Position numbers and translations under genes: made by a program. From Ectobacillus panaciterrae DSM 19096 (GTDB lineage Bacteria > Bacillota > Bacilli > Bacillales > Bacillaceae_G), in contig NZ_KE387247.1 in the NCBI RefSeq assembly GCF_000430785.1, positions 86,301-110,300 on the forward strand: a DNA stretch of 24,000 bases, given 5' to 3'. Of the stretch, positions 5,146-20,220 are shown one piece after another; within the stretch, counting starts at the first letter, position 1, and every line of letters begins with the position of its first letter. Under the pieces are notes generated by a model. It made no database searches and was not told where the DNA came from. It saw nothing but the letters and a program-made list of their open reading frames with translations.

Positions 5146-6175
5146 GGTTGGTTTAGTTGGATACGGACTTTCAGGTGCTACATTTCACGCGCCCTTGTTG
5201 AGCGTTTTAGAGGAGTTTGAAATTGCAAAAGTCGTTAGTTCAAAAAAGGAAAACGTGCAGCAGGATTTGGGAGACGTGGAGGTGGTAAGCAGCTTAGAAG
5301 AGGTTCTTGAAGATGCAGCGATTGATTTAGTGGTTATTACGACACCGAGCGGTTTGCATTATGAAATGGCGAAACAAAGTTTAATGTCTGGAAAACATGT
5401 TGTCTTGGAAAAGCCGATGGTGGTAGAAACATGGGAGGCAGAGGAGCTCATTCGGATTGCTGAAGAAAAGAAGCTGCTTTTAAGTGTTTATCATAACAGA
5501 AGGTGGGATAATGACTATTTGACGGTCAAAAAACTTGTGAATGATGGCGCGCTTGGAGAAATCAATACATATCAGGTCCATTATGATCGCTTCAGACCAG
5601 TTGTAAGAGATAGATGGAGAGAAAAGCAAGGTCCTGGATCTGGCATGCTCTATGATTTAGGTTCGCATCTAATTGATCAAGCCTTACATTTGTTTGGCTG
5701 GCCACAATTCGTATTGGCGGATGTTTTTGCGCAAAGAGAGCGTGCAGAAACGGATGATTATTTCCATGTTATTTTAGGCTACGAGAAGCTGCGAGTCATT
5801 TTACATTCCGGCTCAATCGTTCCGAGTAACGGACCGCGTTTTCAGGTTCACGGAAGCAAAGGAAGCTTTATTAAGTACGGGCTTGATGGACAGGAAGCTG
5901 CGCTCAAAGCAGGCAAAAAGCCTGTCAATGACTCATGGGGCGCAGACGATCCGCAATTTTACGGTAAGCTGGTTACCATTGATGGAGAAAAAGAGAAACA
6001 CGAAACCATCCCAACATTACATGGATCGTATGTAATCTACTATAAAAAAATTGCCGAAAGTATACTTGAGGGCAAAGATGCTCCTGTCATTGCACATGAG
6101 GGATTATCAGTTATTAAAATCATTGAGGCAGCTCTTAAAAGCAATACAGAAAAGAAAGCGATATATGTAGAGTAA
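5132..6175 (+). CDS. Gfo/Idh/MocA-family NAD(P)-dependent oxidoreductase
   Basis: MRKIKVGLVGYGLSGATFH Rossmann N-terminus and an EKP motif (VVLEKPM). ATG 5132 follows a GAGAGGGA Shine-Dalgarno and overlaps the DeoR stop by 14 nt, suggesting an operon. The longer ORF-track start at 5096 has no Shine-Dalgarno. Confidence 0.85.
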   Translation: MRKIKVGLVGYGLSGATFHAPLLSVLEEFEIAKVVSSKKENVQQDLGDVEVVSSLEEVLEDAAIDLVVITTPSGLHYEMAKQSLMSGKHVVLEKPMVVETWEAEELIRIAEEKKLLLSVYHNRRWDNDYLTVKKLVNDGALGEINTYQVHYDRFRPVVRDRWREKQGPGSGMLYDLGSHLIDQALHLFGWPQFVLADVFAQRERAETDDYFHVILGYEKLRVILHSGSIVPSNGPRFQVHGSKGSFIKYGLDGQEAALKAGKKPVNDSWGADDPQFYGKLVTIDGEKEKHETIPTLHGSYVIYYKKIAESILEGKDAPVIAHEGLSVIKIIEAALKSNTEKKAIYVE

Positions 6176-6225
6176 ATCTTTCATTTTTCAACAACAATCA
6201 TTAAACCAGCCTTAGAAATAAATAA

Positions 6226-6256
6226 ACCCTGTCCACCAAGAGACAGGGTATTTTAC
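6226..6256. terminator. Rho-independent terminator between convergent genes
   Basis: ACCCTGTC (6226-6233) pairs with GACAGGGT (6242-6249). T-rich tracts follow on both strands. Confidence 0.65.
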
Positions 6257-6355
6257 TATGTTTATGCGATTGTTGTAAGTATCGTTTTCATTCTAGATAT
6301 TTCTTACTATCAGAGCCTTTTTCTTGGCAAGCTATCCCTTATACAGAAACACTCT

Positions 6356-7117
6356 TTACCCTTCAATCACAAAAGTAAATTCCCTCTCTTTACGCTTGCT
6401 TCCTTCATACGCCCGTTCCACAAACCGAACATCCTCATGAGTCATAAACACAAGCGTTGAAGATCTCGTTCCATATTCCGGAGTTTGAATGAACAGCGGC
6501 GAAAGCTTTCGTTCCCATTCAAGGGAAACACCCGTACTTGGCAATTCTTCATCTGGGGCAGGATCTGCATGTTGCAAACTTGAAAATAAACATTCCTTCA
6601 TGTTTTCAGGTGAACCCTGTAGGCATCTTTTTAATCCTTCTTTTCCTTTGCGTACTTTTGGCCACGGCGTGTCCAACAAATGGTTACTCAGTCCATACAG
6701 CCCCGGTTCTAACAGTCGTATGTCGTTTTCCATGTTCGAATAATAGTAAAGGGAATGGAGATCCCCAACGATTAAGTTAAACCCAGGATATTGATCACGA
6801 TGCTGTTGAATGCTTTTCAAATAGCTTTGCGGCAGTTCTTCTCCTATTAGGAAACGGCTTACTAATTCTCCACGGGAACGCTTATTGTCTCTTACTTCAT
6901 TCGGGTCCCGATAATTTGTGAGAGCCGCGAAGCGCCCTTGTTTTGTTATTCCCATCCATGTTCCCATTTTTTCTAAATCCCTGCCTGCAAGCACATAGGG
7001 GGCATCTTCCCAGAAATGTGCCTGTGAGGTCGGTCTTTCATAAAACTCATCTCGATTGGCTGCAACAACCAAGTCATATTTTGAATCCATTTTATATGCG
7101 AAGTTTACTAAACACAT
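6356..7117 (-). CDS. NRDE-family protein (DUF833/TANGO2-like)
   Basis: The N-terminus MCLVNF... and the AANRDEFYERPT motif are characteristic of the NRDE family. ATG at complement 7117 is preceded by AGGTG. The ORF-track start (GTG at 7126) would add 3 codons. Confidence 0.8.
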   Translation of the reverse strand: MCLVNFAYKMDSKYDLVVAANRDEFYERPTSQAHFWEDAPYVLAGRDLEKMGTWMGITKQGRFAALTNYRDPNEVRDNKRSRGELVSRFLIGEELPQSYLKSIQQHRDQYPGFNLIVGDLHSLYYYSNMENDIRLLEPGLYGLSNHLLDTPWPKVRKGKEGLKRCLQGSPENMKECLFSSLQHADPAPDEELPSTGVSLEWERKLSPLFIQTPEYGTRSSTLVFMTHEDVRFVERAYEGSKRKEREFTFVIEG

Positions 7118-7272
7118 CCATTTCACCTACTTCCACATTTCTTATTATTAATATGGTACCTTACAGATTAAGAATTGTATAATTTTTGCCTAAGGAGAAT
7201 AGATAAAAAAACAGCAGGTGTGCGGCGTCTACAAGCAAGTTGGTGGTTATCTAATTAACGTTTAATACGTAA

Positions 7273-7298
7273 GAAAGGAGCAGCAAAACTGCTCCTTT
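7273..7298 (-). terminator. Terminator hairpin downstream of the HxlR-family gene
   Basis: GAAAGGAGCAG (7273-7283) pairs with CTGCTCCTTT (7289-7298) across a 5-nt loop. It lies 20 nt after the stop of the minus-strand gene. Confidence 0.6.
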
Positions 7299-7318
7299 TC
7301 CTCTGGATGAATTCACTG

Positions 7319-7651
7319 TTATGGATTAGTGGTATTTCCTTCGATTTCTATCCAATCTTGAGACCATTTTCCCAGTTCCACGATGACGGGTTCTAAAGCA
7401 CGTCCTTTATCTGTTAGCGAATATTCAATTCGAACAGGGGTCTCTGGGAATACTTCTCGTTTTACAATTCCCTCCCTCTCCAAACCCTTTAGTCTCTCTG
7501 ACAAAACTCTTCCGCTGATGGGAAGTGCAGCTTCCATGGCACAAAAACGCTGGGTGCCGGAAAGAAGTTGATAAATAACTAAGATGGTCCAACGCTTACT
7601 AATGACATCTACACTTTTTTCGAATCTTGGACACAACAAGGATGGATCCAT
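7319..7651 (-). CDS. HxlR-family (MarR-like winged helix) transcriptional regulator
   Basis: 110-aa ORF with a GAGGTG Shine-Dalgarno. It shows the typical HxlR pattern CP..K..D.I..RW...I...L..G..RF..........S...L..RL..LE..GIV.R......P.R.EY.LT..G. Confidence 0.9.
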   Translation of the reverse strand: MDPSLLCPRFEKSVDVISKRWTILVIYQLLSGTQRFCAMEAALPISGRVLSERLKGLEREGIVKREVFPETPVRIEYSLTDKGRALEPVIVELGKWSQDWIEIEGNTTNP

Positions 7652-7729
7652 GAATTATCACCTCACTCTACAATTATTATATACTATATTTACTTTAAAT
7701 AATAAAATTATAAAATGCAATTATATTAC

Positions 7730-7780
7730 TTGACATAATTTAATTACAAACATATACTTACTTACATAAAGTAACTAAGT
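7730..7780 (+). promoter_or_regulatory. Sigma-A promoter with an overlapping inverted-repeat operator, divergent from the HxlR gene
   Basis: TTGACA (7730-7735), 17-nt spacer, TATACT (7753-7758). The inverted repeat ACTTACTTAC (7756-7765) / GTAACTAAGT (7771-7780) matches 9 of 10 positions across a 5-nt spacer and covers the -10/+1 region. Confidence 0.5.
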
Positions 7781-7991
7781 GATCGTTGGAGATAGATGAT
7801 ATGGTTCCGTCTTTATTCTTAGCATATGGTGCTTCACTGTTGGCTATCGAAGATACTGGATATAAACAATTTCTTGAAATTATCAGATAACAGATACAAT
7901 CGAAGGGCATTATCATTTTTATCTTTTATTAGATAGTTACGATATGTAAAAGTCTAGTTAAAAACAAATATTAAATAAAGAGGTGCTTTTA

Positions 7992-13416: not shown

Positions 13417-14274
13417 TTACTGTGAACGTCTGCGTCTGGAACTTCCGCGTGAGCGACGGTTAGATATTTGGTTGTCTTTGGATATAAGTAATATTAATAA
13501 GAATATAATCAAGGCTATAAGTATTCTATTAGTATTTGAGTTATTAGCCCTGACATCGCCTTGTAAACCAACAGAGTCAGCATCATTGAGCAATGCTGCA
13601 TGAGCACCTTGTAAACCAACAGAGTCAGCATCATTGAGCAATGCTGCATGAGCATCTTGTAAACCAACAGAGTCAGCATCATTGAGCAATGCTGCATGAG
13701 CATCTTGTAAACCAACAGAGTCAGCATCATTGAACAATGCTACATAAGCATCTTGTAAACCAACAGAGTCAGCATCGTTGAACAATTCTACATAATCATC
13801 TTGTAAACCAACAGAATCAGCATCGTTGGGCAATTCTACATAATCATCTTGTAAATCAACAGAGTCAGCATCGTTGAGCAATTCTACATAATCATCTTGT
13901 AAACCAACAGAGTCAGCATCGTTGAGCAATGCTGCATAATCATCTTGTAAACCAACAGAGTTAGCATTATTGAGCAATGCTGCATAATCATCTTGCAAAC
14001 TAACAGAGTTAGCATTATTGAGTAATTCTGTAAAATCACCTTGCAAACCAACAGAGTTAGCATCATTGAGTAATTCTGCAAAAGTAGCTTGCAAACCAAC
14101 AGAGTTAGCATCATTGAGTAATGTTGCAAAATCACCTTGAATACCACATAACTCTGGAAAGTGTTGTCTAAAGTATTGGCTAATACAATGAATATCATCA
14201 CTTTGATACGTATAGCCAAATTTGTTAGTAGTGTATGGCATATACTTTTGATGATGTTTTTTCCTAGAAGCCAT
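13417..14274 (-). CDS. Tandem-repeat protein with a C-terminal transmembrane anchor and an Arg-rich tail (unknown function)
   Basis: ATG at complement 14274 lies 8 nt after an AGGAG Shine-Dalgarno; the ORF-track TTG start at 14289 contains that Shine-Dalgarno. The 285-aa protein has a 46-aa N-terminal region, then 12 x 16-aa repeats (consensus D-x-x-A-L-L-N-D-A-D-S-V-G-L-Q-D), then ILIALIIFLLILLIS and RRSRGSSRRRRSQ. Confidence 0.7.
   Translation of the reverse strand: MASRKKHHQKYMPYTTNKFGYTYQSDDIHCISQYFRQHFPELCGIQGDFATLLNDANSVGLQATFAELLNDANSVGLQGDFTELLNNANSVSLQDDYAALLNNANSVGLQDDYAALLNDADSVGLQDDYVELLNDADSVDLQDDYVELPNDADSVGLQDDYVELFNDADSVGLQDAYVALFNDADSVGLQDAHAALLNDADSVGLQDAHAALLNDADSVGLQGAHAALLNDADSVGLQGDVRANNSNTNRILIALIIFLLILLISKDNQISNRRSRGSSRRRRSQ
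13561..14136 (-). repeat. 12 contiguous 48-bp in-frame tandem repeats within the CDS
   Basis: The unit is TCAGCATCATTGAGCAATGCTGCATGAGCA(C/T)CTTGTAAACCAACAGAG on the plus strand. Units at the gene's 3' end (13561-13750) are almost identical, and units toward the 5' end diverge progressively. Confidence 0.9.
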
Positions 14275-14360
14275 TTCTTCACTCCTCAATTAAACGCTTA
14301 ATAATACCTATACACATTCAATATATATAAAATTGAACAGATTGCTTGGACAGTCATCAC

Positions 14361-14423: not shown

Positions 14424-14692
14424 TGCTCTTTGGTTTTGCAGTATGAATGACAAGCTCAATTCTTCTATATGATGCAAAGAGGCAAATATCATGGACAAGT
14501 AGCAAATTACATTCTATTTAGAACAAAGAATGAGTGAAGGATTACTGGAATCTGGGTTATGTGAATTTTAATGAGTATCTAGCAGAATACGTTATACTTT
14601 TATTAAAATATAATTAGTCGATGCGTAAAAAGTGCCCGGCTTACGGACTCTTTTTGTACATGTTATATGTCAGATGCGGATTTAATACTTTT

Positions 14693-14735
14693 TTAAGAAA
14701 TGGTTTAGAGAATGTTTAGCTTTATGCGGTACGAT
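14693..14735 (+). promoter_or_regulatory. Phased-hexamer box plus -10 element (candidate response-regulator-dependent promoter), site 1
   Basis: TTAAGA (14693), TTTAGA (14704) and TTTAGC (14715) are spaced exactly 11 bp apart. TACGAT (14730-14735) starts 15 nt after the start of the third hexamer. The architecture and flanking TTTTTAAGAAATG are the same as site 2 at 17265-17307. Confidence 0.5.
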
Positions 14736-14863
14736 TGAAGCAGGATGGAACTCGGATAGAGGAGAATGTCTATGGAAGCTTTTTGGCTGACCAATGTGCG
14801 CTTGGAGACAGAGGGGTATATATGAAGACGGGTTGATTAAAAAATAGAGCCTGCAGATTGTTC

Positions 14864-14891
14864 TTGACCTGAACACGCCATTATATATGAT
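14864..14891 (+). promoter_or_regulatory. Sigma-A type promoter upstream of the histidine kinase gene
   Basis: TTGACC (14864-14869), 16-nt spacer, TATGAT (14886-14891). Confidence 0.45.
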
Positions 14892-15006
14892 GCAAACCTT
14901 TTGTAAGAACGCATTGCACTATCAATCATTCTGTAGGGTTGCAAAATTTAGAGACAACAGTTGCGGGGTTTTTATGAGATGTGAAAAAAATACATCTGTG
15001 CACACT

Positions 15007-15035
15007 AAAGAGAGTGATGAGCGCTCTCTTTTAAT
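15007..15035 (+). terminator. Terminator/attenuator-like hairpin in the kinase leader
   Basis: AAAGAGAGTG (15007-15016) pairs with CGCTCTCTTT (15022-15031) across the 5-nt loop ATGAG, including one G-U pair, followed by TTAAT. It sits 30 nt before the kinase start codon. Confidence 0.35.
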
Positions 15036-15064
15036 ACGAAAAAGAACATTAAGGATGAAAAAAT

Positions 15065-16507
15065 GTGTCGATTAAAACAAGGTTTTTGTTGTCTTATATC
15101 GCAGTTATATGTATTTCAATCATGTTGTTGTTTGCTGCCGGCTTTCTGATTCTTTTTACAATGACGGGAGATGTAAAATCCGTCCAGTATTTTTATAAGA
15201 ATTCGTATACGAATAAGCCCTTGACGGAAGCTGAAGAGAACGCGTTTCTTGATTTGAAGCTGCTGGCTAAACATACGCCGGAACAATTGCTGGACGAGAA
15301 GCAGCTGCAGGAAAAGAAAGGGACAGAAATTGTAATACGAAAAGGCAAGTCCATCGTATATGCATCTCCTTCCTTGAATAAAGAAGCATTGGCAAAATCT
15401 CTTCCTGCTTTTGAAGAGGCGAATATTAATACACGCGATACGATTCAAATGGATAACTCTTTTTTCACGTATGTGAAATTCGATTTTTATTTTTCTGATA
15501 AAGAGGAAGGAAGTATGTTTGTTTTACGCAAAGTAAGTTCTTATACGGAACTGGTCCGAAACCTATTCCCGATTCTGTTCGGCTTACTGCTGCTTTTACT
15601 TGTGATTACACTTGGTGTCGTGAACTATATCGTTTCACGCAGCGTTATCAAACCTCTCAATGTTCTGAAGCATGGAACGGAACGAATTAAGGAAGGGGAC
15701 TTGGACTTTCAGCTGCGGCCGCATTCAGGAGATGAAGTGGGACAGCTTACCCAATCGTTCGAGGATATGAGAAAGAGGTTGAAAGAATCCGTGGAAGTGC
15801 AGATTCAATACGAAGAAAACCGAAAGGAGCTTCTTTCCAACATTTCTCATGATTTGAAAACGCCCATCACTTCCATTTTAGGGTATGTAGAGGGAATACG
15901 GGACGGCGTGGCAAATACGCCGGAGAAGATAGACAAGTATTTAACGACAGTGTATACAAAAGCAAAAGACTTGGACTCGCTCATAGAGGAATTGTTTCTG
16001 TTTTCCAAGCTGGATTTGCAAAAAGTCCCTTTTGCGTTTGAAATGGTAAACCTTGTGCAATATATGCGGGACTATGTGGAAGAGCTGCAGCTCGATTTAC
16101 AGGACCAAGGAATAGAAGTGACATTGAAGCCCTCTTATCTTCATGTGATGTATGTAGAGATGGATCGTGAGAAGATAAAACGAGTGTTGTCGAATCTGAT
16201 AAATAATAGTGTAAAATATATGGATAAAGAGCATAAAAGCATAGACATCGTTTTAACCGATCGGCAACATTACGTCACTGTACAGGTGACGGATAATGGT
16301 CCGGGCATCGACGAAGCGGCGCTGCCGTATTTTTATCGTGCGGAGCGTTCACGAAGCAAGCATACGGGCGGAAGCGGTCTCGGCCTCGCGATTGCCAAAC
16401 AAATCGTTCAAGGGCACGGGGGAACAATCAGTGTCAGCAGTGAAACAGGAGCAGGGACGACCATCTTCTTTTCCTTACCGAAAGCAGAGACGGGGGATGT
16501 AAAGTGA
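15065..16507 (+). CDS. Sensor histidine kinase (two TM segments, extracytoplasmic domain, HAMP, HisKA, HATPase_c)
   Basis: GTG start. TM1 FLLSYIAVICISIMLLFAAGFLILF, TM2 LFPILFGLLLLLLVITLGVVNYIV. HAMP region (PLNVLKHGTERIKEGDL...). H-box SHDLKTPIT, N-box LINNSVKY, G-boxes DNGPGI and GGSGLGLAI. The segment between G1 and FYR (DEAALPY) is 4 residues shorter than the usual ..LP.IFERFYR. Confidence 0.9.
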   Translation: MSIKTRFLLSYIAVICISIMLLFAAGFLILFTMTGDVKSVQYFYKNSYTNKPLTEAEENAFLDLKLLAKHTPEQLLDEKQLQEKKGTEIVIRKGKSIVYASPSLNKEALAKSLPAFEEANINTRDTIQMDNSFFTYVKFDFYFSDKEEGSMFVLRKVSSYTELVRNLFPILFGLLLLLLVITLGVVNYIVSRSVIKPLNVLKHGTERIKEGDLDFQLRPHSGDEVGQLTQSFEDMRKRLKESVEVQIQYEENRKELLSNISHDLKTPITSILGYVEGIRDGVANTPEKIDKYLTTVYTKAKDLDSLIEELFLFSKLDLQKVPFAFEMVNLVQYMRDYVEELQLDLQDQGIEVTLKPSYLHVMYVEMDREKIKRVLSNLINNSVKYMDKEHKSIDIVLTDRQHYVTVQVTDNGPGIDEAALPYFYRAERSRSKHTGGSGLGLAIAKQIVQGHGGTISVSSETGAGTTIFFSLPKAETGDVK

Positions 16508-17190
16508 AAAGGATATTGATTGTAGAAGACGAAGTTAGTATTGCCGAATTGCAGCGGGATTATTTGGAAATCAATGGATTATATGTGGATATGGAATCAT
16601 CCGGAAAAGCAGGGCTTGATCGTGTTTTGCATGAAGGATACGATCTTATCATATTGGACATCATGCTTCCGGAGATAAACGGATTTGAAATCTGCAAGAA
16701 AATACGCGCGGTCACCAATGTGCCCATTTTGCTCGTATCCGCCAAAAAAGAAGAGATCGATAAAATTCGCGGTCTTGGTCTGGGGGCAGACGATTATATT
16801 ACAAAGCCGTTTAGCCCGAGCGAGCTTGTCGCACGAGTGAAAGCGCATCTGGCGCGTTACGAGCGGCTCGCGGGCAGTCGTTCCTCCCAAAATACGATAT
16901 ACGTGCATGGAATTTCTATTGATAAGGCGGCGCGCCGGGTGTATATCAATGATAAAGAAGTAATCTTCACCACAAAGGAATTTGATTTATTGACATTCCT
17001 TGTTATGCATCCGAATCAAGTATTGAGCAAGGAGCAATTATTCGAAAACATCTGGGGGTTCGATTCAGCCGGAGATGTATCTACTGTAACGGTTCATGTT
17101 CGTAAGTTGAGAGAAAAAATAGAAAGAGATCCGGCAAATCCACAATATTTAGAAACGGTTTGGGGAGCCGGCTACCGTTTCAATATATGA
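16504..17190 (+). CDS. OmpR/PhoB-family response regulator
   Basis: The GTG overlaps the kinase stop (GTGA), suggesting translational coupling. The receiver domain has EDE, a phospho-acceptor context LIILDIMLP, and KPF. The C-terminal winged helix ends ..LETVWGAGYRF. Confidence 0.92.
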   Translation: MKRILIVEDEVSIAELQRDYLEINGLYVDMESSGKAGLDRVLHEGYDLIILDIMLPEINGFEICKKIRAVTNVPILLVSAKKEEIDKIRGLGLGADDYITKPFSPSELVARVKAHLARYERLAGSRSSQNTIYVHGISIDKAARRVYINDKEVIFTTKEFDLLTFLVMHPNQVLSKEQLFENIWGFDSAGDVSTVTVHVRKLREKIERDPANPQYLETVWGAGYRFNI

Positions 17191-17198
17191 CCAAGTAT

Positions 17199-17231
17199 AA
17201 AATCCTGCCGTTAAAGAGGCAGGATTTTTTT
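17199..17231 (+). terminator. Rho-independent terminator after the response regulator gene
   Basis: AAAATCCTGCC (17199-17209) pairs with GGCAGGATTTT (17218-17228) and is followed by a T-run. Confidence 0.85.
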
Positions 17232-17264
17232 ATAAGAAAAGTTTTCAGCTTTGTTTATAGTTTT

Positions 17265-17307
17265 TTAAGAAATGCTTTAGAGGGAGTTTAGACATGTCCG
17301 ATAAGAT
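17265..17307 (+). promoter_or_regulatory. Phased-hexamer box plus -10 element, site 2 (upstream of the secreted-protein gene)
   Basis: TTAAGA (17265), TTTAGA (17276) and TTTAGA (17287) are spaced 11 bp apart. TAAGAT (17302-17307) starts 15 nt after the start of the third hexamer. It lies 41 nt upstream of ATG 17348. Confidence 0.5.
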
Positions 17308-17347: not shown

Positions 17348-18415
17348 ATGAAGCAAAAGAAAAAATTATTGTCTTATGTAGTGTTGACTACGGCTCTTAC
17401 TACTGGATGGGCTTTATACTCTGATGCAGGACAAGCGTATGCAGCTTCGGAAAGCAAAGTGGAATTGCAAACAGCAAAATCCGATACGATTCGTGTCGTG
17501 AAGTTCAATAAATTGAATCCTATCGCATTGGAAATTACGTTCTCTAAACCGATTCCGCAAGAAGATTTGATCTTAAATCAAGCACAGAAAAACTTCGTGT
17601 TCAGTAACGGACTAAAGCTTACGAATGTACCGCAATTAAAAACGGGAGCTGAATCCACTTATATCGTTCCGGTTTCAGTACAAAAGCCGGGAGAGAAATA
17701 TACGCTAACGTATAAAGGAAAGAAAATGCGCACATTTACAGGAAGCAGAGACAAGTTGAAATTGAGTTCAGTGAAACAAGTGACGAATGATACATTCGAA
17801 TTGGAATCATTCCGTTCCAACGGTATCCTTGACTACCAATATGTCGTAGCCGCCGATGCCGAAAAAATGGGGAATCTTGCAGTGACCCTTGATAAACACA
17901 ATAGATATAACGGTGTTCGTTATGATATCATCCCGTCTCTAAGAGATCAAAAAGTAACAATCACTCCGGAAGGCGGAGAACCGATGACAGCCAGCTACGT
18001 ACCATTTACGCAGGCCACTGACGGCAGACAGGCTCCGAAATTCCGTTTGCCTCAAGGCCAAACATTAAAACTGGGCACAAAATACACAGTAATGGCTGAC
18101 TGGGCGATTGTGGAGAAACAGACGTTCATAGCGGCAGATGTAGCACCTCTAGTTATTTCATCAGCCAAGCAGGCAGGTCCTGCAAGTGTTGAAGTCACTT
18201 TGTCGCAAGATCCGAAAGATGAACTGTTCGCTCTTCGTCAAATCAAGTTGACAGCGGAAGACGGCTCAGAACTTCTTGCACAATACAAATTCACATCCCG
18301 CAAAGGCGCTTCCGGTACATTCGATATACTGAATAACAGCGCTTTAAAACCAGGAACAGCATACAAAGTAGAACCGATCGGCGGCTGGGCCGAGGCGGCA
18401 AACGTTACATTGTAG
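17348..18415 (+). CDS. Secreted protein of unknown function with Ig-like beta-rich modules
   Basis: AAAGGAGAG Shine-Dalgarno. Signal peptide MKQKKKLLSYVVLTTALTTGWALYSDAGQAYA/AS. The N- and C-terminal segments resemble each other (..ALEITFSKPIPQEDL.. versus ..SVEVTLSQDPKDEL..). I recall no family match. Confidence 0.8.
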   Translation: MKQKKKLLSYVVLTTALTTGWALYSDAGQAYAASESKVELQTAKSDTIRVVKFNKLNPIALEITFSKPIPQEDLILNQAQKNFVFSNGLKLTNVPQLKTGAESTYIVPVSVQKPGEKYTLTYKGKKMRTFTGSRDKLKLSSVKQVTNDTFELESFRSNGILDYQYVVAADAEKMGNLAVTLDKHNRYNGVRYDIIPSLRDQKVTITPEGGEPMTASYVPFTQATDGRQAPKFRLPQGQTLKLGTKYTVMADWAIVEKQTFIAADVAPLVISSAKQAGPASVEVTLSQDPKDELFALRQIKLTAEDGSELLAQYKFTSRKGASGTFDILNNSALKPGTAYKVEPIGGWAEAANVTL

Positions 18416-18454: not shown

Positions 18455-18486
18455 AGGAAAGCCTTGTTTCAAGGGCTTTCCTCTTT
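18455..18486 (+). terminator. Terminator hairpin after the secreted-protein gene
   Basis: AGGAAAGCCTTG pairs with CAAGGGCTTTCCT (12 bp with one bulge) and is followed by CTTT. Confidence 0.65.
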
Positions 18487-18786: not shown

Positions 18787-19074
18787 ATATTGATCCATAA
18801 CCAACTTTTGATCCAAAAGAAAATGGAGAAACTCTTCAATTTTAGGAATATCCTCCGGTACGATACCAAGTTTCGGAGCCCAATAGCTTGAATGTTCAAT
18901 GTCCTCGCTGCAAAGCAGCGCCATGCGCTCGCTTTGTATGGAAATGACCATTGCTTTTCCGAGAAAATGCGAGGAGTAAATGACCGATAAATCATAGCGG
19001 TGATTGCCGGCGGCGATACAAAAATAGTGGATATTTTGCTTTTCTCTTTCTTCTGACAAGATTTCGAAATTCAT
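18784..19074 (-). CDS. Hypothetical 96-aa cytoplasmic protein
   Basis: A strong AAAGGAGTGG Shine-Dalgarno lies 4 nt before the ATG, and a terminator follows immediately. I recognise no family. Confidence 0.65.
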   Translation of the reverse strand: MNFEILSEEREKQNIHYFCIAAGNHRYDLSVIYSSHFLGKAMVISIQSERMALLCSEDIEHSSYWAPKLGIVPEDIPKIEEFLHFLLDQKLVMDQY

Positions 19075-19361
19075 ATTTTACCACTCCTTTTCTACACTTT
19101 TTTGTGACAGAGGATGATCCTGGCAGATGCCCGTTCCCTCTCATGATCATCCCTTTGTTAAAACAATGGGTTAACGGCGTCTATTCGCAAGTGTATGCGC
19201 GAGCGGCTTCATAGGTGTATAAATACATTCGGCACAAGATACATCAGATTCCTGCTTTGTAACAAAATTAGAATATATAGGGGATAGGGAGAATTCTGCT
19301 CAAGCGTACATAAAAGGTGCATAAAAGGGAGAAAATACTCTGAAACGAAAGGAGTGTGTTT

Positions 19362-19691
19362 ATGCATAAATTAATCAATACGACATTTATTATCTTATTT
19401 ACCACACTGACAGTAGGATTGATTCCGGTCCATGCAGAAACGGCCAATACAAACCAGGAACAACCGGCTGTTCAATTGACAGAGAAACAGAAAAAGGAGT
19501 TATCGGCTCTGCATAAGGAAATTTTGGCGAAGAAAAAAGAAGTCATTTCAAAATATGTGGAATATGGAGTTATGCCGAAAGAAAAAGGCGACAAAATTAT
19601 TTCGCATATGGAAGAGCACTATGCGAAGCTTGAGGAAAACGGTTTCGTCATGAAAAGAGAAAGACATAAGCATAGACATTGGGAGCGTTAG
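19362..19691 (+). CDS. YckD-like secreted protein (DUF2680 family)
   Basis: ATG 19362 lies 7 nt after an AAAGGAG Shine-Dalgarno. It has a signal peptide, then LTEKQKKELSALHKEILAKKKEVISKYVEYGVMPKEKGDKIISHMEEHY...NGF and a His/Lys-rich tail. This is closely parallel to B. subtilis YckD as I recall it. Confidence 0.8.
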   Translation: MHKLINTTFIILFTTLTVGLIPVHAETANTNQEQPAVQLTEKQKKELSALHKEILAKKKEVISKYVEYGVMPKEKGDKIISHMEEHYAKLEENGFVMKRERHKHRHWER

Positions 19692-19696
19692 ACAGT

Positions 19697-19738
19697 GAGA
19701 AAAGCTCAGATAAAGGAATCTGAGCTTTTCTTTTTTTC
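19697..19738 (+). terminator. Rho-independent terminator
   Basis: GAGAAAAGCTCAGA (19697-19710) pairs with TCTGAGCTTTTC (19719-19730) and is followed by a T7 run. Confidence 0.85.
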
Positions 19739-19950
19739 TGGGTATTCAAATTATCATTCCGTAGCGATTTGGTTTTCAAATATTGAATGGGACTGAAACA
19801 AAATGATTGTAATTTTATGATTTTATATATACAGATTTAACTTTGGTGAAATTTTCATATTGGTAAGGATAGCAGCCTAAACTTTTGGCTATTGTCCTGA
19901 ATAAGGTGATTAAGAATAGAGTATTAAAAAATGAAGGGAGAGAAGTATAC

Positions 19951-20220
19951 ATGATCGATGAGCGTATTATCGGAGGGTTTGGCGGTCCGTTTTTCGGAGG
20001 ATTTGGCCGTCCGTTTTTCGGAGGGTTCGGTCGTCCATTTTTTGGGTTTGGTCGTCCATTTTTTGGAGGATTCGGTTTTCCATTTTTTGCAGGGTTAACA
20101 GCGGGAGCTTTACTTACGCCTGGTTTTGGATACGGTTATCCTTACCCGGCACCGTATCCATGTCCATATCCATCTCCTTATGGCTGTCCATATCCTTATT
20201 CGTATGGTTATGGTTATTAA
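19951..20220 (+). CDS. Small low-complexity Gly/Phe/Pro/Tyr-rich protein (spore-coat-like composition)
   Basis: ATG 19951 lies 8 nt after a GAAGGGAGAG Shine-Dalgarno. The 89-aa protein is MIDERII + five GGFG(R/G/F)PFF repeats (24-bp DNA repeats, 19972-20088) + GFGYGYPYPAPYPCPYPSPYGCPYPYSYGYGY. A clean terminator follows. Confidence 0.65.
   Translation: MIDERIIGGFGGPFFGGFGRPFFGGFGRPFFGFGRPFFGGFGFPFFAGLTAGALLTPGFGYGYPYPAPYPCPYPSPYGCPYPYSYGYGY

Follow-up and report, generated by a model that had tools for sequence, protein, structure and literature searches.

The question raised by this locus is whether two similar repeat boxes, which flank a sensor kinase and response regulator gene pair, are binding sites of the regulator encoded between them. 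The boxes lie in a stretch of 24,000 nt from the genome of Ectobacillus panaciterrae DSM 19096 (contig NZ_KE387247.1, positions 86,301 to 110,300), here called the window, and coordinates are given in its own numbering unless a locus is named. Site 1 is found upstream of the kinase gene and points into its leader. Site 2 is found after the regulator gene, just before a gene for a 355-aa secreted protein (the target). With a probability of roughly three in four, both boxes are predicted to be binding arrays of this regulator, through which it would activate the target and, at site 1, the kinase operon.

Anatomy and uniqueness of the two boxes

The genes and sites in question, all on the plus strand, are:

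14682-14725, plus strand, site 1 array of four 11-bp units starting TTAATA, TTAAGA, TTTAGA and TTTAGC (read from the sequence)
14693-14698, 14704-14709 and 14715-14720, plus strand, the site 1 hexamers TTAAGA, TTTAGA and TTTAGC (read from the sequence)
14730-14735, plus strand, -10-like hexamer TACGAT of site 1, starting 15 nt past the start of the last unit
15065-16507, plus strand, sensor histidine kinase gene (480 aa; an extracytoplasmic domain of about 130 aa flanked by two transmembrane segments, followed by HAMP, HisKA and HATPase_c; Pfam)
16504-17190, plus strand, OmpR/PhoB-family response regulator gene (228 aa; Pfam), translationally coupled to the kinase gene
17232-17297, plus strand, site 2 array of six 11-bp units starting ATAAGA, TTTCAG, TTTATA, TTAAGA, TTTAGA and TTTAGA, in a register common with 57 other loci
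17265-17270, 17276-17281 and 17287-17292, plus strand, the site 2 hexamers TTAAGA, TTTAGA and TTTAGA (read from the sequence)
17302-17307, plus strand, -10-like hexamer TAAGAT of site 2
17348-18415, plus strand, target gene (355-aa secreted protein with three immunoglobulin (Ig)-like beta-sandwich domains; AlphaFold 2 model and Foldseek)

The kinase gene comes first and overlaps the regulator gene by 4 nt (GTGA). The preliminary description of this DNA, made from the letters alone, had reported three hexamers per site at 11-bp spacing and a -10-like hexamer whose first base lies 15 nt beyond that of the third; both values are exact at both sites. The arrays are longer than the three hexamers. 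Further units in the same register are present upstream, at 14682 (TTAATA) in site 1 and at 17254 (TTTATA), 17243 (TTTCAG) and 17232 (ATAAGA) in site 2. Neither site has a recognisable -35, as had also been stated, because the 17 bp ahead of each -10 contain AGAGAA or AGAGGG. Site 2 was correctly placed just before the 355-aa gene, and the gap between its end and the ATG at 17348 measures 40 nt (41 in the earlier account).

The similarity of the two sites is not accidental. An 18-nt core has two exact matches in the window against 0.05 expected, while the full 43-nt degenerate pattern, with up to two mismatches allowed, has two matches in the window and none in 100 shuffles. Across all 5.41 Mb of the genome, the three-hexamer pattern (at most one mismatch) detected only sites 1 and 2, and the reversed control detected none. 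Chance origin of the similarity between the two sites is excluded.

Conservation of the locus and of the box

An alignment-based scan of species-representative genomes uncovered 80 loci; a scan of genome contigs with the single target protein gave no match, whereas the alignment query succeeded. In about 60 of the 80 loci the order kinase, regulator, target is kept in one orientation (Paenibacillus, Brevibacillus, Cohnella, the Bacillus cereus group and Domibacillus). The orthologs in these loci are 59-84% identical for the regulator and 42-64% for the full-length kinase. The kinase-regulator-target synteny is present in another genus of the same family too (G010), and two relatives from a separate genome search behave in the same way. 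Bacillus subtilis 168 is not known to carry the module.

The spacers between the regulator and target genes were aligned by expectation maximization. All of them (58 of 58, from two bacterial families) share a single register of up to six 11-bp units; every unit begins with TT(T/A)A, and the last one starts 15 nt before TAnnAT or TAnnCT. Among 39 non-redundant sites information is highest at the unit starts (TT.A) and at the -10, and it collapses downstream of the -10. The autocorrelation of this conservation profile has a local peak at lag 11. The box is therefore conserved at the orthologous loci in the sense that the preliminary description had asked about, with the same register and the same distance to the -10 in 58 of 58 loci from two families. 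The layout had been likened to that of promoters activated by OmpR/PhoB-family regulators, and this fits the window and all aligned loci: 11-bp direct repeats, an array in the place of the -35 and a fixed distance to the -10.

The same data bear on the origin of the two copies. A repeat search found gapless similarity between sites 1 and 2 over 69 nt at 71% identity, which could be read as a recent local duplication or a small mobile repeat without a regulatory role; alternatively, the boxes could be promoters of an alternative sigma factor. However, only two copies exist in the genome, and across families only the unit starts and the -10 are conserved while the remainder is free. For the sigma variant, up to six equally spaced units misfit a two-block promoter, and spacings of 9 or 20 nt between the units and the -10 misfit a -35. 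Both explanations are highly improbable and were rejected on the pattern of conservation.

Specificity of the box and size of the regulon

A 56-nt matrix was built from the spacer sites and applied to all loci (2.08 million positions). The 99.99th percentile of the scores was -16.9, and every match above 12 precedes a target homolog or a kinase operon. Site 2 scored 45.8, and site 1, which was left out of the training, scored 36.1. Other untrained matches were site 1 of E. funiculus, pre-kinase sites in Cohnella, sites before an ankyrin-kinase-regulator operon, and sites before orphan target paralogs.

As a stringent control, a second matrix was prepared from 49 Paenibacillaceae sites only, with no Bacillaceae site included. 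The preliminary description had suggested a genome-wide scan with a matrix made from the two sites themselves. Among 10.8 million positions of the E. panaciterrae genome this matrix ranked site 2 first (32.8) and site 1 second (29.2); the next scores were 12.6 and 8.6. The loci without a box do not make a clean negative control: Paenibacillus elgii and G043 hold an ortholog of the pair elsewhere, and only G042 is without both the ortholog and the box.

The genome scan agrees with the two-promoter regulon that had been predicted, apart from one weaker third candidate. The third-ranked match in the genome (contig C12, minus strand; L086:1384-2119) consists of four phased units followed at the proper distance by TACACT, and lies about 65 nt before a gene for a PAP2-family (BcrC-like) phosphatase at about 73883-74500 on the minus strand of that contig. 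This site is kept in E. funiculus (L087), but the whole spacer is similar there, so its retention proves little. At the other loci, PAP2 genes show no linkage to the module. The third site is a weaker candidate, and its membership in the regulon is possible though doubtful.

Site 1 and the kinase leader

The region between site 1 and the kinase gene contains several elements:

14736-15064, plus strand, kinase leader of 329 nt with a short open reading frame (sORF), a sigma-A-like promoter and a hairpin
14772-14825, sORF of 17 codons, a remnant of an amidohydrolase N-terminus (tblastx and blastn to contig C46 of the same genome)
14864-14891, sigma-A-like promoter TTGACC-16-TATGAT (10 of 12 positions match; promoter scan)
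15007-15031, leader hairpin (fold -17.8 kcal/mol, z -3.35)

The intact paralog of the amidohydrolase is found on contig C46 (about 18960-20205, minus strand). It encodes 415 aa and its start is similar to the leader sORF. Another part of the leader, about 14898-14966, matches this gene as well. From site 1 to the kinase start the window has 330 nt, and E. funiculus has about 112 nt; the surplus in the window comprises the sORF remnant, the promoter and the hairpin.

Ectobacillus, G010, Domibacillus, some Cohnella and a few Paenibacillus have a box ahead of the kinase operon. The preliminary description took site 1 as a sign of autoregulation. That the box points into the kinase leader stands, but the pre-kinase box is lineage-specific and the 330-nt leader has a sigma-A-like promoter of its own. 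Autoregulation through site 1 is plausible, and less certain than control of the target.

The regulator as the probable binder

The regulator encoded between the sites had been assigned to the OmpR/PhoB family, and profile searches agree: PF00072 was found with an e-value of 2.6e-28 and PF00486 with an e-value of 4e-28 (residues 151-226). The residues of the receiver pocket (E8, D9, the phospho-acceptor D52, and K101) are each at least 95% conserved among 57 orthologs. The best solved relatives are RegX3, MtrA and RpaA. No named equivalog was found, as the best NCBIfam scores are under the cut-off (VanR-type 235 vs 350, YycF 223 vs 340, WalK 229 vs 725). Against the PhoB equivalog model the regulator scores 199.8 bits, with a cut-off of 296.2, and no CiaR model is among the best 25 NCBIfam matches listed. 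Judged by such scores, the kinase-regulator pair is none of the named systems (VanR, YycF, PhoB, WalK and others). Conservation of the recognition helix among the regulator orthologs was also considered; it is generic for the family, so it was discarded as evidence of specificity.

The adjacent regulator is the probable binder by linkage and co-conservation. The linkage of regulator gene, box and target is kept in 58 loci from two families, and in several lineages boxes precede the pair's own operon, which is the usual signature of a cognate regulator. It could be argued instead that the box, while a genuine conserved promoter element, is bound by another OmpR-family regulator encoded elsewhere and that the adjacent pair is a mere neighbour or a co-regulated passenger. 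Boxes do occur before orphan target paralogs, distant from any two-component system. In some Brevibacillus genomes (L048, L049 and L070, about 6001-7900) two tandem target paralogs and an ankyrin gene stand behind one box, far from the two-component genes. In the Paenibacillus-like genome of Bacillus sp. FJAT-28004 (L098:2931-3038, minus strand) a paralogous pair (kinase 38% and regulator 62% identical) has a look-alike box before its own kinase, with GTAAGA, GTTACA and GTTTAG followed by TATGAT. However, the genomes with orphan boxes hold a full-length ortholog of the pair elsewhere. Of the six orphan-box loci that are not at contig ends, four have the system in their home genome. A linked locus occurs in the same genome as three of the loci, and the genomes of L073 and L075 hold a full-length pair ortholog at another place. 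A binder other than the linked regulator is therefore improbable.

Several observations weigh against the reading that the regulator acts through both boxes. In E. funiculus the pair is a pseudogene (L004:6573-7530 = L006:4743-5700). About 1.1 kb has been deleted, so that the kinase frame reaches a stop after residues 1-135 and the regulator sequence picks up, out of frame, from about residue 45. The target and both boxes are nevertheless intact in this species, and their survival after the deletion in the adjacent pair also favours a regulator encoded elsewhere. The retention may reflect a recent loss of the pair or the use of the box by a second regulator. With regard to site 1, the kinase gene in most Paenibacillus and Brevibacillus loci is preceded by an ordinary extended -10 promoter in place of a box. 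The pseudogene remnant, the sigma-A-like promoter and the hairpin between site 1 and the kinase make the contribution of this site to kinase expression uncertain.

Proposed mechanism of activation

If the regulator binds both arrays, the kinase would sense an extracytoplasmic signal and phosphorylate the regulator at Asp52. Regulator dimers would then bind head-to-tail to TT(T/A)A(G/T)A units, which the 11-bp period places on the same side of the helix. Where a -35 is missing, the last unit would stand in for it, 9-10 bp from the sigma-A-type -10 hexamer, and the bound regulator would recruit RNA polymerase (class II, pho-box-like activation). Transcription would be expected to start downstream of the two -10 hexamers. 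Site 2 would be the conserved core output, which switches on the monocistronic gene for the secreted S-layer-like Ig-domain protein. Through site 1 the regulator would also activate its own kinase-regulator operon, beyond the basal level provided by a sigma-A-like promoter in the leader.

Between the regulator gene and site 2 lies a strong terminator, and therefore the target gene needs its own promoter, which would be site 2:

17199-17231, plus strand, intrinsic terminator after the regulator gene (11-bp stem and T-run; fold -17.4 kcal/mol, z -6.25; none of 200 shuffles folded as well)

The effect could also run in the opposite direction. The units overlap the region bound by polymerase, the array covering the -35 region, so the regulator might act on them mainly as a repressor or roadblock while expression comes from other promoters. 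A sigma-A-like promoter is indeed found downstream of site 1, and CiaR of Streptococcus represses at least one of its promoters (PMC8317062). Against this, neither site has a -35 and basal activity should consequently be low. The fixed 15-nt offset between the last unit and the conserved -10 is the geometry of an activator, and no alternative promoter is visible from the terminator to the target start codon. A mainly repressing role is very improbable, and activation is the preferred direction.

The target protein

The 355-aa protein has a signal peptide. No Pfam or NCBIfam match was found in it, and hence no SLH domain (PF00395). Most of its 261 homologs have SLH domains or bear the name 'SbsA Ig-like', and PF00395 is carried by the homologs in Paenibacillus, Brevibacillus and Cohnella. 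The closest homolog belongs to E. funiculus (74% identity).

The AlphaFold 2 model (predicted local distance difference test 80, predicted template modelling score 0.73) consists of three beta-sandwich domains. The best Foldseek matches of this model are SbsC (1.3e-8), SbsB (9.5e-7), and Sap and EA1 (about 1e-4). The TM-scores against these S-layer proteins are low (about 0.2) because the domain arrangement differs. Going by the model, the target appears to resemble S-layer-type Ig-domain surface proteins, without SLH anchoring.

The ankyrin lipoprotein

A fourth member of the module, an ankyrin-repeat lipoprotein of about 240 aa, is found in around 50 loci, but its position is variable. The gene follows the target in Paenibacillus and Brevibacillus (most loci about 7000-7800), and lies between the box and the target in G010 and Domibacillus. 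It is upstream of the kinase in loci such as L026, L040 and L083. The B. cereus group has it in divergent orientation to the kinase, with a minus-strand box of its own. One representative is:

L005, 6693-7418 in reversed coordinates, reverse strand, ankyrin lipoprotein gene

The module's ankyrin lipoprotein is absent from the E. panaciterrae genome. The sole ankyrin protein of this genome was considered as a counterpart and rejected, being an unrelated fusion with an M48 peptidase and lacking a box.

It is conceivable, though unlikely, that the box marks a four-part envelope module, widespread in Bacillales and made up of the kinase, the regulator, the Ig protein and the ankyrin lipoprotein. 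Both induced proteins would in that case feed back on the 130-aa outer domain of the kinase, or would switch the surface coat on signal. If this were true, the Ectobacillus lineage would be a natural partial knockout, in which the ankyrin partner was lost and, in E. funiculus, the sensor pair as well.

Comparison with known systems

The Pho boxes of Escherichia coli PhoB and Bacillus subtilis PhoP (the latter with four TT(A/T/C)ACA repeats) consist of direct repeats in 11-bp phase that stand in for the -35 and are occupied by several dimers in tandem. The half-site sequence of the window boxes is unlike these, the regulator is well under the cut-off of the PhoB model and no phosphate genes are present in the window operon. 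SaeR of Staphylococcus aureus recognises GTTAA-N6-GTTAA. Its promoter is autoregulated, and the products expressed from it include a lipoprotein and a membrane protein (SaeP and SaeQ) with feedback on the kinase. That kinase, SaeS, is nearly devoid of an extracytoplasmic domain, and the genes are ordered differently from those of the window. Several Paenibacillus arrays of the present module do contain GTTAA-N6-GTTAA. To assign the Ig-like protein or the ankyrin lipoprotein a feedback role like that of SaeP and SaeQ is speculation by analogy.

Among characterised boxes, those of CiaR and BqsR come nearest to the window sites. The OmpR-family regulator CiaR of the streptococcal CiaRH system binds TTTAAG-N5-TTTAAG, with an 11-bp period, just upstream of the -10; it mostly activates, and its operon is autoregulated (PMC3091779, PMC8317062). 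Site 1 of the window reads TTTAAG-N5-GTTTAG. The cia order is regulator-kinase while that of the window is kinase-regulator, and CiaR uses two half-sites, whereas here there are three to six units with TTTAGA, TTAAT or TTTCT variants. The cia targets are htrA and small RNAs, in contrast to the S-layer-like protein and the ankyrin lipoprotein of the present module, and the likeness proposed is one of function. BqsR of the Pseudomonas aeruginosa BqsRS system binds TTAAG-N6-TTAAG with the same 11-bp period, overlapping the -35, as shown by gel shift, and its operon is autoregulated (PMC4358008). BqsRS differs in being Gram-negative, in sensing Fe(II) through an RExxE motif, in having only two half-sites and in its unrelated targets. 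By analogy, the box probably functions like CiaR and BqsR sites; membership in those systems is unsupported by the equivalog scores and the gene order.

A literature search found no published description of a module with this kinase, regulator, S-layer-like protein and ankyrin lipoprotein. The two boxes thus provide a precise cis-element, with a minimal regulon, of an apparently unstudied two-component system. Together with its target, this system is conserved in at least two families of spore-forming soil bacteria, the B. cereus group, Brevibacillus and Paenibacillus among them. The boxes suggest control by a signal for two proteins, the S-layer-like surface protein and the extracytoplasmic ankyrin lipoprotein, and the box is usable as a reporter in screens for the kinase signal. 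The design itself is textbook, and the value lies in annotation and in an experimental handle, with no new principle.

Neighbouring features

The target gene is also followed by a hairpin:

18455-18482, plus strand, terminator hairpin after the target gene (inverted repeat; fold -17.6 kcal/mol)

On the other side of the module, no box is directed at the divergent neighbour (13417-14289, minus strand). This gene encodes a 290-aa protein without a family match, which consists mostly of 16-aa (48-bp) tandem repeats and has a C-terminal hydrophobic tail.

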